From: Escherichia coli
Lineage (GTDB): Bacteria > Pseudomonadota > Gammaproteobacteria > Enterobacterales > Enterobacteriaceae
Direction: 5' to 3' (one strand)
DNA: 64,000 bases
Assembly (NCBI RefSeq): GCF_044324785.1
Contig: NZ_CP172127.1
Shown: one piece after another, positions 22,752 to 29,667 of the stretch
Position numbering within the stretch: position 1 is the stretch's first letter
How the letters are laid out: the number at the start of each line of letters is the position of its first letter
Program-made: the position numbers and the translations under genes
Notes under the pieces: generated by a model
What the model saw: only the letters and a program-made list of their open reading frames with translations
Told to the model about the DNA's origin: nothing
Database searches by the model: none

Positions 22752-23632
22752 ACACTCCTCGTCAGTATTCTGGCGGCCATTGCACTTAATCCCGGAGACA
22801 TGCGGTTGAATGCTGTTCCGACGGCGTTAAGCTGCCCGGAAACGGTATCCAGAGCACCTGCAATATTTCTTTTGTCCACACCACTCAGCGCAGACTGTGC
22901 CTGCTGTACATACGTGGCTGCTTCGCTGGCTGTTCTGGCCAGACTGATGGCATCGGGCATGGATTCAGAGAGTGCGTTAAACGCCGGAACACTTTTCCCC
23001 AGAGCCCCGGAGATATTACCCAGTCCGCTCATCAGCCCCGGCACACGGGTCAGTGCGACAACGGGGTTATCCTTCATTTTCTGTGTCACCCGAACGGCGC
23101 TGATAGTGGTCTGGAGTACAGACTGCGCCTGTTTCGCATAGTTGACGCCGTTGCGGATGAACTGCGCCACCCCGGAAGGTGAAGGAATGGCACCGGAGAC
23201 CGCCCCGACACCCGGGAGCTTCGTGCGTATTGCCGGTGGTTGCAGAGGATTTTTCGGGTCACCGGTGTATTCCCGGAGAGACACGGTGGCACTGACAGCC
23301 AGCACGTTGCCGGTACTGTCAGTCTGCTCGCTGGTTGCAGTCACATCGGTAATCACGAACCAGCCGCGATAGTCACCGTTGCCGAAGACCAGCGCCAGTG
23401 CCTGATGGGCTTTCATGGCTGTTCGCAGTCTCGCCAGCTCCACATCGGGTACACAATAATGCTGATGGAAAACCAGAGTTATCTGGATTTCGTCCAGCCT
23501 GTCGCCGACGAACTGCAGGCCAGGCTTACCCCCGATGCGGGCATGCTCCGCATAATCGACGCCGAACGTGGCCTCGAAGCCGTCCCAGTAGGTAATCAGC
23601 TCAAACTCAATATCACCCAGTACGGCAAACAT
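22748..23632 (-). CDS. Tail protein (P2 gpU / Mu DNA-circularisation protein N-like)
   Basis: 294 aa between tape measure and X; assignment by position. Confidence 0.5.
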   Translation of the reverse strand: MFAVLGDIEFELITYWDGFEATFGVDYAEHARIGGKPGLQFVGDRLDEIQITLVFHQHYCVPDVELARLRTAMKAHQALALVFGNGDYRGWFVITDVTATSEQTDSTGNVLAVSATVSLREYTGDPKNPLQPPAIRTKLPGVGAVSGAIPSPSGVAQFIRNGVNYAKQAQSVLQTTISAVRVTQKMKDNPVVALTRVPGLMSGLGNISGALGKSVPAFNALSESMPDAISLARTASEAATYVQQAQSALSGVDKRNIAGALDTVSGQLNAVGTAFNRMSPGLSAMAARILTRSV

Positions 23633-26600
23633 CAGCGGTACTCCTTACGTTGTTTCTGAGCCAGCAGACGCTCCAGCATTTTTTCCAGCTCATGCAGACT
23701 CATATTCAGGGCACCAGTCAGTCCTGCAGGCGCTGTGGTTTCCCTGCCATTGAGGAAAAACTGAGGATTAAAGCTGACCTGGATACCACCAGACGTTCCA
23801 CCGCCGGTTGCAGCTGCACCACGGCCTGAATATCCGGCAGCCAGGATTTCAGGCGAGGGGATACGGGGAACATCCGGTGTCATCTCATTTGCCAGACGTT
23901 GCCCTGGTAAAATCGATGCCCGGGTGGAGAGCGGAATAACGGGCATGGAAGACAAACTATTGATTACGGCTCCGATCGCATTTTTAGCAGACGACATAAA
24001 CCCATTGATATCGGGCAACGGCATACTGAAGCGAACACCTGAAGTGTTATCCCGTATTTCTGGCCCCTGAATGCTCACGGGCATTCTGGGGAGCAGTTCA
24101 CTGGCCATTCGCTGCCCGGCCAGAGCTGCAAGCGGAGTGGTCCGCTGCAGGCCAATGGCGGCCCCCTGCGCGATATTGTCACCAAAGCCCATAAACACGC
24201 GGCTCGGCGAATGAATGCCCAGCTTTTCGCTGAACCAGCCACTGATGCTGTCACCCATTCCGGTTACACTGGATTTGAGCGACTCCCATTTGTTTTTGAT
24301 ACCGTTAATCAGACCGTCGACAAGATGGCCACCGAAGTCGGTGAACTTTGCCGGCAGATCAACACCAAGATATTTCAGCGCAGCTGCAAAGGCTTTATAG
24401 AGCAGACCTGCCGGCGACCAGTTAATCAGCAGCTTACCAGTTCCCGCGATACCGCCGTTAAAGGCTTCCTGAATGTCAGCCCAGCACTGTTTAAACCAGC
24501 TACTGATGCTGTCACCCATTCCGGTTACACTGGATTTGAGCGACCCCCATTTGTTTTTGATACCGTTAATCAGACCGTCGATAAGATGGCCACCGAAGTC
24601 GGTGAACTTTGCCGGCAGAGCAACGCCGAAATATTTCAGCGCAGCCGCAAAGGCTTTATAGAGCAGGCCTGCCGGCGACCAGTTAATCAGCAACTTACCA
24701 ATTCCCACAATGCCGCCGTTAAAGGCTTCCTGAATGTCAGCCCAGCGCTGTTTAAACCAGCTACTGATGCTGTCACCCATTCCGGTTACACTGGATTTGA
24801 GCGACCCCCATTTGCTTTTGATACCGTTAATCAGACCGTCGATAAGATGGCCACCGAAGTCGGTGAACTTTGCCGGCAGAGCAACGCCGAAATATTTCAG
24901 CGCAGCCGCAAAGGCTTTATAGAGCAGGCCTGCCGGCGACCAGTTAATCAGCAACTTACCAATTCCCACAATGCCGCCGTTAAAGGCTTCCTGAATGTCA
25001 GCCCAGCGCTGTTTAAACCAACCACTGACAGCCCCCCAGTTGCGGTAGATAAGGTAAGCTGCTGTCGCGACAGCGGTGATAACGAGACCGATGGGATTCA
25101 TCATCAGCGCTCGCCCAATCCAGAGAACGGCACGTGCAGCGCTCATAAAACCGCGAACGAGGCTGCCCGCCAGAACTTTGCTGAGTTTCAGTCCTCCGCT
25201 GGTCAGTCGGCTGAATCCAGTGACAAGCCAGCGTAATTTGCCACCTTCTCCGAGTGCGGTAGTCAGTCGATGCCAGTTGGTCCGGAGTAAAACAGTAGTT
25301 TTCCAGACGTTCACAAAGGGGGAAATAAGGAGATTCAGCCCCAGTTTGAGACCAATAGTCGCTATCTTAATCGCAAGGAGCGCACTGATGAGCTTAAAAG
25401 CCCCACTGACAAATTGCGGGTGAGTCGCTACCCAGTGTTTTGTCCCCTGAATGAGTGGGAGCAGTTCCTGAGTCAGAGAAATAAAAGATGGAGCTAATTG
25501 ATCGCCCAGCGTAATTGCCAGATCGCGACTGCTGACCATAAGTGTTTTAGTGGCTTCAAGGGGAGATTTCAGCCGCTGATCATAAGCACTGGCAAGCAAA
25601 TCGTTATCCGCAGCCCTGAGAGCACCGGCACGGATCTCTCGATATCTGTCCATGTTGGCCAGCATCGGGCGGATAAATGCCATGACCTGCATATCCGCGA
25701 ACATATCGCCCAGACCAAAGTTTTTCGCCAGAGCCTGAAGTGCCTCATCTCTTGCCGTATCATTCTTTATTTTCATGGCTGATTTGAAGCCGGCCAGCGC
25801 TTCGGGGCTTTTGGCATTGAGGTAACGTTCTATAACACTCAACATCCCTTCAATCGGAGAGATCCCCGCAGCTTTATAACTCGCAATAGATCCCTGCAAA
25901 TCAATACCCAGATCAGCAAACTGTTTCTGAGTATCGCGGGCAAAAATTTTGGTAAGAAAGTTTTTAAAATTATTGGCTGCTTCGTCGGTGGAACCTGCAC
26001 CGATTTTTGCTATCTGGAGACTGGCCCCGATTTCAGCAACAGCCTCTTTTCCACTGGCAAGACCCGCCATCATTGGGGCCAGGGACTGCATCCACTTGAC
26101 CTGATCCGGGATTTCAAATGACCCCTGGTCACCGGCATAAGCCATAATATTCTGAACGGCACCAAAATCTCTGGCCGCACCTTTCAGGGAGTTTTGCCAG
26201 ACTGCGGCCACTTTTGCCCAGTCCTGAGCAGACGTGCGTGTTGCCGTTGCCGCGCGGGCAATATCCGGCATCAGAAAACCGATATCTGACACATTATCAA
26301 TATTGTCGCTGATGAGTGAACCCACCGCCTCCTGCAGCTCATCCTGATACTGATTGTATTTAAGCGCCCAGCCTTTTATCTGTCCGGCAAGTGCATCCCG
26401 CGTTTTATTGTCATATTTTGCGGTGATCGACATATCAATCATTTTGTCCTGAAAAGACATGGACTGCTGAACGGCAGGGGAAACCGTATGATAAACAGTC
26501 TGTGCCATGCCATACGCTTCAATCCCCTGACCATACAGCGCCATGCGGTTAGCTTTCAGCGCATCACTGGTAGCGGATGCCGCTGACAGACGGCGCTGCT

Positions 26601-26844
26601 GGCGCTCAATTTGCTCCATGGTGCGGCTTACCCGCAGCAGCTCGCTGTTGAGATGCTGCATCCGGGAAGAACCCAGTTGACCATAACGTTCTGTTGCACG
26701 GGTTAAAGCGTTCTGACGTTCCTGCAGGCGGCGTGAGGTATCGCTCAGGGAATCAAGCGCACGGCGGGTACCGCTCATTGCAGAACGGAATGTGCTGCCA
26801 ATCATCCCGCCGATAACAACGCCGACTGAAAACTGTCCCGACAT
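23632..26844 (-). CDS. Tail tape measure protein (1070 aa) with internal triplicated 87-aa repeat
   Basis: Long, Ala/Gly-rich, coiled-coil-like N-terminus; sits after the tail chaperones. Confidence 0.85.
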   Translation of the reverse strand: MSGQFSVGVVIGGMIGSTFRSAMSGTRRALDSLSDTSRRLQERQNALTRATERYGQLGSSRMQHLNSELLRVSRTMEQIERQQRRLSAASATSDALKANRMALYGQGIEAYGMAQTVYHTVSPAVQQSMSFQDKMIDMSITAKYDNKTRDALAGQIKGWALKYNQYQDELQEAVGSLISDNIDNVSDIGFLMPDIARAATATRTSAQDWAKVAAVWQNSLKGAARDFGAVQNIMAYAGDQGSFEIPDQVKWMQSLAPMMAGLASGKEAVAEIGASLQIAKIGAGSTDEAANNFKNFLTKIFARDTQKQFADLGIDLQGSIASYKAAGISPIEGMLSVIERYLNAKSPEALAGFKSAMKIKNDTARDEALQALAKNFGLGDMFADMQVMAFIRPMLANMDRYREIRAGALRAADNDLLASAYDQRLKSPLEATKTLMVSSRDLAITLGDQLAPSFISLTQELLPLIQGTKHWVATHPQFVSGAFKLISALLAIKIATIGLKLGLNLLISPFVNVWKTTVLLRTNWHRLTTALGEGGKLRWLVTGFSRLTSGGLKLSKVLAGSLVRGFMSAARAVLWIGRALMMNPIGLVITAVATAAYLIYRNWGAVSGWFKQRWADIQEAFNGGIVGIGKLLINWSPAGLLYKAFAAALKYFGVALPAKFTDFGGHLIDGLINGIKSKWGSLKSSVTGMGDSISSWFKQRWADIQEAFNGGIVGIGKLLINWSPAGLLYKAFAAALKYFGVALPAKFTDFGGHLIDGLINGIKNKWGSLKSSVTGMGDSISSWFKQCWADIQEAFNGGIAGTGKLLINWSPAGLLYKAFAAALKYLGVDLPAKFTDFGGHLVDGLINGIKNKWESLKSSVTGMGDSISGWFSEKLGIHSPSRVFMGFGDNIAQGAAIGLQRTTPLAALAGQRMASELLPRMPVSIQGPEIRDNTSGVRFSMPLPDINGFMSSAKNAIGAVINSLSSMPVIPLSTRASILPGQRLANEMTPDVPRIPSPEILAAGYSGRGAAATGGGTSGGIQVSFNPQFFLNGRETTAPAGLTGALNMSLHELEKMLERLLAQKQRKEYR
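24200..25020. repeat. Three tandem ~261-bp coding repeats inside the tape-measure gene
   Basis: Shadow ORFs at 24215, 24473 and 24734 are near-identical; protein repeats ISSWFKQRWADIQEAFNGGIVGIGKLLINWSPAGLLYKAFAAALKYFGVALPAKFTDFGGHLIDGLINGIK.KW.SLKSSVTGMGDS three times. Confidence 0.8.
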
Positions 26845-26919
26845 AGTGGTTAACCTCCGGGGAAGGTGAAAAGACGTGAGGGGATAACGCAGAACAGCCG
26901 CTACTGGCGGCTGTCTGTA

Positions 26920-27177
26920 CTATGATTTGTCGCCGTACTCGCTTTTGATTTGCTCTTCAGCCTGCTCCAGCCACATCTCCAGATCGTCAGTATCGAGGGC
27001 ATCAATCTCCCCCGGCTGAAACCGGAACCATCTCGCCAGCAGCCCCTGCGCCTGCGTCAGCGCCCTGGTTGCTCTCACCCATCCCCGTGATGAGCTGAAA
27101 TCGTTTCTGTAACTGCAGGTAATCAGCCAGATCCATATTGTCGAGATCTTCCGGGAGAAGACCAGTACTGCGGGCAA
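26920..27177 (-). other. Overlapping +1-frame extension of the tail chaperone (putative programmed-frameshift product)
   Basis: Second frame overlaps the last ~58 codons of the chaperone and continues 27 codons past its stop (...GEIDALDTDDLEMWLEQAEEQIKSEYGDKS). Confidence 0.4.
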
Positions 27178-27337
27178 TCAGCGGTTCGTCCCAGTCTGCC
27201 GGGTTTTTGCTGATTTTGCGCACCTGCTTCAGGTCTTTTACCGTCAGGCGTTTCAGTTCAACCAGCTCAATTCTGGTGCCTGCAGCAGTGGTGAAGGGAT
27301 AAGACAATTTAAAAGTATCGGATGGGGTCTGTGACAT
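27002..27337 (-). CDS. Tail assembly chaperone (upstream frame)
   Basis: 111 aa immediately upstream of tape measure. Confidence 0.6.
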   Translation of the reverse strand: MSQTPSDTFKLSYPFTTAAGTRIELVELKRLTVKDLKQVRKISKNPADWDEPLIARSTGLLPEDLDNMDLADYLQLQKRFQLITGMGESNQGADAGAGAAGEMVPVSAGGD

Positions 27338-27434
27338 GATTGTGCTCCTGTGTAAGTTCAGGGCAGTATGTCGGGAGAAGCGCGTGACGGATATTAAAGG
27401 AGATTAAGAAGAAGGGGCCGGAGCCCCTGTGATG

Positions 27435-27716
27435 TCAGCAAGTGCGAAACCCCTTGCAGTTACGCAGGAAAGCGATGAGAAGCGTCTTTCCCTCAGATTT
27501 GCCGATGCCGGAGAACCAGTGGTCGGGAGGCTCCCATGCTTCAATCAAATCCGCCAGTTTGCGGGCCTTTGAACGTGTGCAGTCAATCGGGTCATTGGTT
27601 TTACGGGTATTAAAAAGGGTTTCCACCCCCGGAATATCAAGGAGGGTAAACCACGTACCATTTGACATGCCCAGTGCCGCACATCGTCCTCCTTTATCCG
27701 TCAGTTCAACACTCAC
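27435..27716 (-). CDS. Hypothetical phage protein (93 aa)
   Basis: ORF between tail tube and chaperone. Confidence 0.4.
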   Translation of the reverse strand: MSVELTDKGGRCAALGMSNGTWFTLLDIPGVETLFNTRKTNDPIDCTRSKARKLADLIEAWEPPDHWFSGIGKSEGKTLLIAFLRNCKGFRTC

Positions 27717-27718
27717 CG

Positions 27719-28240
27719 TCAGCCCCCGATATTGATACGGTAGTCAGTCAGTTGATCAACACCGCCGACCCGGAAGATGTTGGCCAGATAGTCCAGTTGC
27801 AGCAGCTCTTCACCATCCAGTACCTGTCTGATATACGTGCAGGTGAAGCTACTGGAGAACTCGGCGTTCTCGTGCTGTTTGAACGTCCCCAGCGGGTTCT
27901 TCTTGAACATAATCGTCAGGAAGGTGACCAGCGGGATTTCGTCAATCAGCCCCTGCGAGCTGTAGCGCTGGACGCTGGAACGACACTGCAGTGCCAGCGA
28001 CCTGTACGGGTTCGCGGCAGACAGCATCGCATCGCGGTAAAAGCTGTTCCATTTGATTTCGCCTTCCAGCTTGTCAAAACCAGCCGGGAGTTCCACCTTA
28101 CCCACCATCCCCAGCGCCTTGTGTTCCTGCATAATCATGGAGACATCGGGGAGTTTGACTTCCTCAGCCCGTCCCAGCAGGTTAGTACCATCCAGATAGA
28201 TGTTGGCATTCGTGATGCGGTTTATCTCAATCTTTGACAT
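27719..28240 (-). CDS. Tail tube protein
   Basis: 173 aa directly downstream of sheath. Confidence 0.8.
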   Translation of the reverse strand: MSKIEINRITNANIYLDGTNLLGRAEEVKLPDVSMIMQEHKALGMVGKVELPAGFDKLEGEIKWNSFYRDAMLSAANPYRSLALQCRSSVQRYSSQGLIDEIPLVTFLTIMFKKNPLGTFKQHENAEFSSSFTCTYIRQVLDGEELLQLDYLANIFRVGGVDQLTDYRINIGG

Positions 28241-29667
28241 CAGTTGCCCCCTTTCAGGGTTAACAGGTATTCCGAGGTGATCTCAGTCTCAAACGTCAGT
28301 CGCTCCAGCGGCGGTGGTGGCGTATATTTGTAGCTCAGCAACAGGTGCCCGGCGGCCAGCTCCGTCTCCGGATTGCGGGCCGGATCAAACCAGCAACGGA
28401 AGCCCAGTACCGCACCATCACCAGTCATTTTGCGACCGTAGGCGTTGACCGACTCCGTCAGTGCATCAATCAGCGCCTGAGTAATCGGCATGTCGATGTA
28501 CTGCTGGCTGAAATAACGAATGGACTCGTTGATCACATCACCGGTGCGGCGAACGTTCTCAAAGTTACGCATATGGGTGACCGTTGGCCATGCTGCCGTC
28601 CGGTTACCCCACAGACGAAGGCCGCTGCCGTAACTGCTGAATACCGTGGTGATCCCCTGTTCGTTAAGCAGGTTCACCTCACTCTGCGGGTCATCAATCA
28701 TCGCGGACAGCTGGCGCTCCACGCCGGTGATCCCCAGAATCTCCTGATTGGAGGATGACCACCAGTAGCCCTTGTCCAGATCGACTCTGGCACGCAGACC
28801 TGCTGCACGCTGGCTGAGCGGCTCCAGACGCTCTGTGTTTGTCACCGGGTCATATACCTTCACATGCGGATAGCACAGACGGACGCGGTCGGAGCTGGTA
28901 TTGAAGTTGATGGTGCCTTCCGGGCCACGACCTGCCAGAGCCTGTGCAAAGGTGGTACCGACAGGCGCATCAATGTAGGTTACCGCGCCCAGCTTCTCTG
29001 CCATGGCGATAAGCTCAACTGCGACACTCTTCTGGGTGCAGAACACCGGCGCAATCAGAATTTTGGCGAAATAGCCGTACAGGTTGAAGCTGTCGTTAAG
29101 CAGCTTCATGCCGGTTCGGTTTCCGGCGCTGTTCACCCCGCCGATGATGTCCGCCGCAGTCACCTTCGACGGGTCCGCGTACTCATAGCTCACCTTCACG
29201 CTGCCACCGGCCTCAATAGCCTTGCCCAGGTTCGTGAGCACACCCGCCTGCGCATCAACACGGTAGTCCGTGTTCGCCGTGTGGGTGGTGCTGCCTTCAC
29301 TGTTTTTCACCACCACATTAGCGACAACCGGATGCGCCAGTCTGGCCTGCCCTGTCGATTTGTCAAAGGTAACCACCTCATCCTCGATCGCCGTTTTATG
29401 TTTCGCCGGGTCGAGGACGTTAATGACCAGAACGGTGCCTGCACCATGGTCATAAATCGCATCCAGCGCCTGCGGAATGGTAAAGCCGGTGAACTGGCTG
29501 CCAAATGCCGCTGCGTCTTTCTCAGACAGGCACTGTACCAGCGTATTGACATCCCCCATCGGGGCGGTACCAATCAGGCCAATAACGGCAGATTTCACCG
29601 TTTTAACCGGGCGGGCACCGTTTTCCACCTCAATGGTTTCGGGACCATGCAGATAGTTAGCTGCCAT
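28240..29667 (-). CDS. Contractile tail sheath protein
   Basis: 475 aa, first tail gene after head-completion genes. Confidence 0.85.
   Translation of the reverse strand: MAANYLHGPETIEVENGARPVKTVKSAVIGLIGTAPMGDVNTLVQCLSEKDAAAFGSQFTGFTIPQALDAIYDHGAGTVLVINVLDPAKHKTAIEDEVVTFDKSTGQARLAHPVVANVVVKNSEGSTTHTANTDYRVDAQAGVLTNLGKAIEAGGSVKVSYEYADPSKVTAADIIGGVNSAGNRTGMKLLNDSFNLYGYFAKILIAPVFCTQKSVAVELIAMAEKLGAVTYIDAPVGTTFAQALAGRGPEGTINFNTSSDRVRLCYPHVKVYDPVTNTERLEPLSQRAAGLRARVDLDKGYWWSSSNQEILGITGVERQLSAMIDDPQSEVNLLNEQGITTVFSSYGSGLRLWGNRTAAWPTVTHMRNFENVRRTGDVINESIRYFSQQYIDMPITQALIDALTESVNAYGRKMTGDGAVLGFRCWFDPARNPETELAAGHLLLSYKYTPPPPLERLTFETEITSEYLLTLKGGN

Follow-up and report, generated by a model that had tools for sequence, protein, structure and literature searches.

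The gene for the tail assembly chaperone in a BcepMu-like prophage probably directs the synthesis of two proteins, and sequence comparison points to a programmed +1 frameshift at the motif CGA_UUU_C, which would yield a 138-amino-acid E-E' fusion, as the best explanation for the arrangement of its reading frames. The window, that is the whole stretch of DNA analysed here, comprises 64,000 nucleotides of Escherichia coli contig NZ_CP172127.1 (assembly GCF_044324785.1). The locus within it is best explained as the E/E+E' chaperone pair of an E. coli prophage that combines a Mu-type head with a P2-type tail. Its features, all on the minus strand, are as follows.

28240-29667, minus strand: tail sheath gene (PF04984 and PF17482)
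27719-28240, minus strand: tail tube gene, P2 FII-like, upstream of the chaperone gene (PF04985, E=2.9e-53)
27435-27716, minus strand: small extra ORF of 93 amino acids between the tube and chaperone genes
27002-27337, minus strand: tail assembly chaperone ORF, zero frame, E-like, 111 amino acids plus TGA (PF10109)
26920-27177, minus strand: +1 ORF overlapping the 3' part of the chaperone ORF, 85 amino acids counted from the first TTG
27097-27103, minus strand: proposed +1 shift site CGA_UUU_C, with CGA 27103-27101 in the E site, UUU 27100-27098 in the P site and C at 27097
26920-27099, minus strand: +1 coding segment after the putative shift, with UUC at 27099-27097, 58 codons (SSSRGWVRATRALTQAQGLLARWFRFQPGEIDALDTDDLEMWLEQAEEQIKSEYGDKS) and TAG at 26922-26920
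27079-27081, minus strand: TGG codon of the invariant Trp of the extension, six codons after Phe80, in the +1 frame only
26941-27039, minus strand: core of the extension resembling GpE (P2 E'), LARWFRFQPGEIDALDTDDLEMWLEQAEEQIKS (PF06528 match)
23632-26844, minus strand: tape measure protein gene, 1070 amino acids, directly downstream (PF10145, E=1.3e-20)

The chaperone ORF matches PF10109 (Phage_TAC_7, 'E, or 41 or 14') with an E-value of 5.5e-21 and 74.8 bits against a cutoff of 25, and it also matches phrog_166, described as 'tail protein'. Its chaperone domain covers residues 8-81, and the C-terminal tail past codon ~85 is of low complexity and weakly constrained. According to the original prediction, an overlapping frame passes the chaperone stop by 27 codons with protein-like sequence and lies in the +1 frame relative to the upstream ORF. 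Both statements were borne out, the first by the ORF coordinates and the translation, which includes DLEMWLEQAEEQIKSEYGDKS, and the second by the frame offset, (27337-27177) mod 3 = 1, which corresponds to +1 or, equivalently, −2 relative to the chaperone. The locus thus shows the two overlapping ORFs between tube and tape measure genes that are a criterion of lambda G/GT-type pairs. The tape measure protein is the expected client of the chaperone, and the P2 FII-like tube protein is the expected partner of the E' extension.

The region of the locus shares 99.9% identity with Escherichia phage PhiKM, which has been placed under Bcepmuvirus. Of 5426 complete E. coli genomes, 640 carry the prophage, ST131 strains among them. 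The tape measure gene is annotated as such in the PhiKM and RefSeq records. In records of this type the chaperone is labelled 'tail protein E' or 'phage tail assembly protein', and the +1 ORF is mostly unannotated; 2 of 25 sampled RefSeq records carry the PGAP annotation 'GpE family phage tail protein' for an ORF starting at 27078 (GTG) or 27060. The BcepMu record (L063, AY539836, 4603-5364) labels gp42 as the equivalent of lambda G and gp43 as its slippage product. There, gp42 is the +1-frame GpE-like ORF that overlaps gp41 (PF10109), with TCC_TTT_CGC at the position of the shift site, and gp43 lies in the gp41 frame past the gp41 stop and resembles GC-rich noise. The assignment of the G/T labels to gp42/gp43 instead of gp41/gp42 is probably erroneous. 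Upstream of the chaperone gene, the 93-amino-acid ORF at 27435-27716 (minus strand) belongs to phrog_1239, a family of unknown function, and shows a weak DUF7739 match; it is followed at 27413-27428 by a terminator-like GC hairpin with a T-rich tail. This ORF is present in PhiKM and KP12 and absent from the Salmonella-type locus L059.

To the extension itself, PF06528 (Phage P2 GpE) matches over the residues LARWFRFQPGEIDALDTDDLEMWLEQAEEQIKS with E=0.0067 and 16.4 bits, which is below the gathering score of 23. Among 14 diverse family members, 10 match PF06528 at E<=1 (best E=1.2e-4), and alignment of the family profile to the P2 E' peptide with hhalign gave a probability of 86.6% and an E-value of 4.5e-6. 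The extension furthermore matches phrog_8286 (E=3e-33), and a search of the PDB returned no sequence relative at E<=1. Judging from these profiles, the chaperone and its extension are homologous to P2 E and E+E'. The GpE-like core starts at ~27039, upstream of the stop-adjacent GGGGGA, so that the shift cannot lie near the zero-frame stop. Residue W6 of the extension is invariant across 14 diverse extensions from five clades. The predicted fusion consists of M1-F80 followed by the 58 amino acids of the +1 segment, 138 in total.

The original prediction had proposed a comparison with homologous chaperone pairs. We gathered relatives from phage records and IMG/VR contigs in single-protein scans with five chaperones as queries, covering the E. 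coli/Klebsiella, Salmonella, Ralstonia, Burkholderia (BcepMu) and Pseudomonas clades. The overlap proved to be conserved: all 86 non-redundant loci in which an extension could be detected carry it in the +1 frame. These loci are phylogenetically related, so that the count does not represent independent events. The same frame was found in 10 further loci of the Pseudomonas clade. An arrangement shared by all of these loci is far beyond chance, and it persists where identity to the chaperone of the window falls to ~28-33% (BcepMu, Pseudomonas Komp). Several distant E. coli-type relatives show 88-90% identity in the +1 peptide, compared to 66-77% in the chaperone. Only P2 and the Pasteurella AFS-2018a group had a −1 extension in this survey, with the heptamers T_TTT_TTG and A_AAG_GGA, respectively.

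A search for a slippery site in the overlap, likewise suggested beforehand, led to a conserved UUU_C at 27100-27097, 32 codons upstream of the stop, and not to the G-runs. This tetranucleotide is part of the conserved stretch CAG AAA CGA TTT CAG, in which CGA encodes Arg79 and TTT encodes Phe80. Both codons are unchanged in the non-redundant E. coli-type relatives (CGA 34/34, TTT 34/34), where third positions upstream are variable at 69 of 79 codons. In each of the 86 loci, the interval open in both frames contains exactly one zero-frame TTT_C, which invariably sits at the homologous Phe codon, and the Pseudomonas clade shows the same. Its context is CGA_TTT_CAG/CAA/CAT in the enteric loci, CGA_TTT_CTG in the Ralstonia type, [T/G]CC_TTT_CGC in the Burkholderia type (TCC_TTT_CGC in BcepMu itself) and GTG_TTT_CGG in Pseudomonas. 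CGA makes up ~4-5% of the Arg codons in the flanking genes of the three CGA-bearing clades, and TTT accounts for 10-52% of the Phe codons in the flanking structural genes of four clades, with 10% in the Burkholderia type and 28% in the Ralstonia type. Invariant despite this low usage in the flanks, TTT and CGA are thus held by selection at the nucleotide level.

The position of the shift can be delimited from both sides. In the Ralstonia and Pseudomonas types, the +1 frame opens only after a TGA that lies 8 nt upstream of TTT, and the invariant Trp, encoded in the +1 frame only, is located 2-6 codons downstream of TTT in the five clades. Together, these two boundaries would confine the shift to ~20 nt, and UUU_C is the sole tetranucleotide inside this interval that allows re-pairing. 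We found no X_XXY_YYZ heptamer of the −1 type for this extension, no downstream RNA structure in a fold of 27110-26985 that was better than shuffled sequences (z=−0.84), and no Shine-Dalgarno-like stimulator visible upstream in CTGCAGTTACAGAAACGA. Furthermore, the zero-frame A-site codon, which is CAG/CAA, CUG, CGC or CGG across the clades, is not consistently a rare one, and no stop codon adjoins the shift site. The rare conserved codon at the site is CGA, which occupies the E-site position, and the signal appears to consist of the tetranucleotide and its E-site codon. As no classical +1 stimulator was found, the efficiency of the slip may be low.

Selection on the two frames changes along the gene. 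The periodicity of substitutions flips from the zero frame to the +1 frame inside the overlap, where 16 of 21 third positions of the +1 frame are variable compared to 5 of 21 third positions of the zero frame; upstream, the zero-frame value is 69 of 79. The zero-frame tail is dispensable. Depending on the relative, the zero-frame stop is located at codon 91, 105 or 112, and in BcepMu the GpE-like core lies wholly beyond it. A CAG to TAG variant of codon 91 (27065-27067), seen in loci L003, L023 and L024, cuts the chaperone to 90 amino acids. This 90-amino-acid form (P0014) is found on 914 contigs, and in strain E30 its gene is flagged as a pseudogene ('internal stop') by PGAP. The gene is probably functional, since both products would keep their conserved parts if the shift takes place at codon 80.

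Based on these observations, we propose that most ribosomes would stay in the zero frame and produce the 111-amino-acid chaperone. In a minority of cases, tRNA-Phe (anticodon GAA) in the P site on UUU 27100-27098 would move forward by one base to UUC 27099-27097, a codon with which it pairs better than with UUU, where a G:U wobble is needed. We infer that the slip goes forward by one base and not back by two. Translation of 58 codons in the +1 frame would follow, and the resulting 138-amino-acid fusion would carry a C-terminal GpE-like domain that is absent from the short form. The invariant CGA in the E site may be stimulatory, through its I:A wobble and perhaps a weak contact in the E site. 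If the pair works as in lambda G/GT and P2 E/E+E', the N-domain common to both products would cover the tape measure protein, the less abundant extension would bring in the tube protein, and the frequency of the slip would determine the proportion of the two products. For lambda G/GT, it has been described that the N-domain acts on the tape measure protein and that the extension is presumed to bind the subunit of the tail tube (PMC5009743).

Slippage of this kind has been described elsewhere. Influenza PA-X is produced by a +1 shift on UCC_UUU_CGU, involving P-site slippage of tRNA-Phe on UUU_C, and the authors foresaw that UUU_C sites form a class limited in its E- and A-site codons (PMC3498833). 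In a screen with an E. coli cell-free system, TTT_C likewise belonged to the efficient +1 tetramers (bioRxiv 10.1101/2025.10.02.679949). The site in the window shares with influenza A PA-X, the E. coli argI error site and Yersinia YopN-TyeA a zero-frame UUU followed by a pyrimidine, which permits re-pairing on UUC in the +1 frame; the shifts at these three sites are of low efficiency (PMC3498833; PMC5009743). The UCC_UUU_CGC of the BcepMu relatives is one base off the UCC_UUU_CGU of PA-X. Unlike the proposed control of a phage tail-chaperone ratio, the known examples concern a eukaryotic virus, a translational error and a type III secretion regulator. Their slow A-site codon is not matched here, where the enteric and Ralstonia clades instead have CGA in the E site. 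We consider it reasonably likely that the BcepMu-like phages of Enterobacterales, Burkholderiales and Pseudomonas have in common a class of programmed +1 shifts that has so far gone unannotated, in which a bare UUU_C slip with a clade-specific E-site codon replaces the −1 heptamer of the P2 homologues.

The original prediction had allowed for either a +1 shift or a separate small gene. In the latter case, a free GpE-like protein of ~52 amino acids would be made from its own start, GTG 27078, with no frameshift being involved; PGAP annotates the ORF in this way in a few genomes, and PHROGs keeps phrog_8286 as a stand-alone family. The GTG is preceded by a moderate SD-like match (−5.7 kcal/mol), and some independent initiation is possible. 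A check for an independent start with an SD in the downstream frame, which the original prediction had named as a finding that would refute it, revealed no conserved start among the relatives, however: most have GCA at the position of the GTG, in others an ATG is found at a different place, where the SD is weak, and the loci L039 and L107 contain no ATG, GTG or TTG at all before the conserved core. Conservation of the +1 frame, including the invariant Trp, moreover begins upstream of the candidate starts, and the P2 homologue E' is annotated as being made only as a −1 fusion with E. A separate gene would also leave the invariant CGA_TTT_C without explanation. Given the homology to P2 E', the conserved frame, the conserved UUU_C and the relatives that lack a start, a +1 shift is favoured and a separate gene appears unlikely.

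Another mechanism that would reach the same frame is a −2 frameshift as in Mu, in which the P-site tRNA moves back by two bases on a G-run. Candidate runs are ACG_GGG_A (27088-27082), GCA_GGG_G (27049-27043) and GGG_GGA (27013-27008). A +1 and a −2 shift are indistinguishable from sequence alone, the overlap does carry G-runs, and Mu, the gp41 of which matches PF10109, has a verified −2 shift at CGG_GGG_CGA (PMID 15469818). We nevertheless regard a −2 shift as distinctly unlikely at this locus, because not one of the G-runs is conserved: in 19 of 34 E. coli-type relatives, codon 84 reads ACT instead of ACG, and the runs are absent in the other clades. GGGGGA lies downstream of the invariant Trp and of the start of the GpE-like core, so that a shift there would lose conserved sequence, and the frequent variants with a stop at zero-frame codon 91 terminate upstream of two of the three G-runs. 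The conserved UUU_C, in turn, offers no −2 re-pairing, as tRNA-Phe would be placed on GAU. The G-runs ACGGGGA, GCAGGGGC and the stop-adjacent GGGGGA were also considered as slippery sites in general and were rejected, being unconserved and, in two cases, located downstream of conserved +1 sequence.

A +1 slip could also take place at another site of the overlap, for example at Gly85 (GGG_A, 27085-27082) or at GGG_G (27046-27043), with UUU_C being kept for another reason. The invariance of GGG at codon 85 in the E. coli-type relatives would fit such a site, and in the cell-free screen, monotonous XXX P-site codons, including GGG, were linked to more frameshifting (bioRxiv 10.1101/2025.10.02.679949). 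A conserved Gly-Trp in the +1 frame (GGN TGG), however, explains the GGG at codon 85, and the Ralstonia, Burkholderia and Pseudomonas types, in which the permitted interval leaves UUU_C only, lack GGG where they align with this codon. A shift at 27046 would, in addition, skip the invariant Trp. A slip away from UUU_C is therefore highly unlikely.

It is scarcely credible that no recoding occurs at all, with the +1 ORF being a relic that has no function or the overlap having arisen by chance in GC-rich sequence: the extension is indeed unannotated in most RefSeq and GenBank records, but its peptide is conserved over five clades with +1 third-position periodicity, and the BcepMu core lies entirely outside the overlap. 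Slippage of the RNA polymerase is implausible, as the site contains only three T's and a run of this length is too short for transcriptional slippage. Finally, we considered 138-amino-acid single-ORF proteins from databases (P0001-P0011) as evidence for the junction and rejected them, since they join the frames at differing homopolymers, mostly GGGGG (27008-27012). Such junctions are better accounted for by indel errors of draft or Logan assemblies than by natural fusion.

With a +1 shift on UUU_C as the preferred reading, the locus can be compared to characterised chaperone pairs. P2 E and E+E' are annotated with one start and a −1 frameshift at T_TTT_TTG (PMC3091744). Both pairs occupy the same place between the FII-like tube and tape measure genes, both have a PF10109 N-domain (P2 E: 1.5e-12), and the extensions are homologous and GpE/PF06528-like, with the fusion comprising 142 amino acids in P2 and a predicted 138 here. 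The proposed shift point falls where the chaperone domain ends and, in the alignment, is no more than 3 codons away from the P2 site. Unlike in P2, where −1 slippage takes place on a heptamer, the extension is in the +1 frame and the site is CGA_UUU_C. Furthermore, the overlap continues for 32 codons past the site, compared to a few in P2, and a hairpin-containing gap of 75 nt separates E' from the tape measure gene, whereas P2 E' overlaps the start of gene T. The hairpin in this gap (26890-26917, minus strand) is stable, with 11 pairs and one bulge, and lies between the E' stop at 26920 and the tape measure start at 26844. The surrounding 81-nt segment folds at −24.4 kcal/mol (z=−4.08), and 0 of 200 shuffled sequences were as good. 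A role in mRNA processing, stability or attenuation is possible.

Mu gp41 is likewise the tail chaperone of a transposable myovirus, with an extension in the +1/−2 and not in the −1 frame, and it matches PF10109 just under the gathering score (24.7 compared to 25 bits). Both extensions open with a W-L/V-R motif, which reads GGEWLR at the beginning of the Mu extension (L005 2958-2975), ...RGWVR in the window (27079-27087) and ...AAWLR in BcepMu. This Trp motif of Mu and the BcepMu-like phages may hint at a shared feature just after the shift. The G-run CGG_GGG_CGA of Mu differs in that it permits −2 re-pairing (C_GGG_GGC), and the locus in the window has no such conserved run. Moreover, Mu gp41 primarily matches PF23746 (9e-35), whereas the chaperone in the window matches PF10109 only, and homology between the extension and the −2 extension of Mu was not significant (hhalign probability 0.7%).

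Lambda gpG/gpGT resemble the proposed pair in their shared N-terminus, their position between the major tail and tape measure genes and a product ratio set by slippage. They differ in belonging to a siphovirus, in lacking sequence similarity and in using a −1 shift on G_GGA_AAG. The overlap in the window contains a conserved slippery sequence and shows no conserved downstream initiation signal, two further characteristics by which lambda G/GT-type pairs are recognised. The frameshifted tail assembly chaperone pair of this type was reportedly defined by Xu et al. in 2004.

Programmed frameshifting in tail chaperones is among the most conserved recoding events of phages and is nearly always −1. 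The original prediction had stressed that a +1 direction departs from the −1 shifts of most chaperones; the direction is indeed unusual, yet the verified −2 shift of Mu provides a precedent other than −1. Annotation pipelines and frameshift predictors are built around −1 heptamers. The authors of PRFect reported that 0 of 481 forward (RECODE) frameshifts were predicted correctly (PMC10274946). No account of a +1 UUU_C frameshift in the chaperones of BcepMu-like phages turned up in our full-text literature search, with a mention in Xu et al. 2004 or Christie et al. 2002 being possible. At present, records either give no annotation for the E' extension or list it as a small gene of its own, and chaperone variants with a truncated tail are flagged as pseudogenes. 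If true, the conserved CGA_UUU_C would offer a simple annotation rule for this chaperone family. It would also represent a natural prokaryotic counterpart of the PA-X UUU_C and provide a bacterial system for studying E-site control of +1 slippage. In addition, homologous chaperones would reach the same outcome of two products by −1, −2 or +1 slippage, and the direction of the frameshift would have switched within one protein family, at the same point of the same protein as in P2.

A further observation concerns the tape measure gene downstream of the pair. Positions 24233-25028 (minus strand) contain a 261-bp tandem repeat in 3.0 copies with 96% matches, which encodes units of 87 amino acids (SWFKQRWADIQEAFNGG...). 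The homologous gene of E. coli E30 comprises 2691 nt compared to 3213 nt here, a difference of exactly two repeat units, and the PhiKM record has a sequencing gap at the repeat. Changes in repeat copy number may alter the length of the tail.
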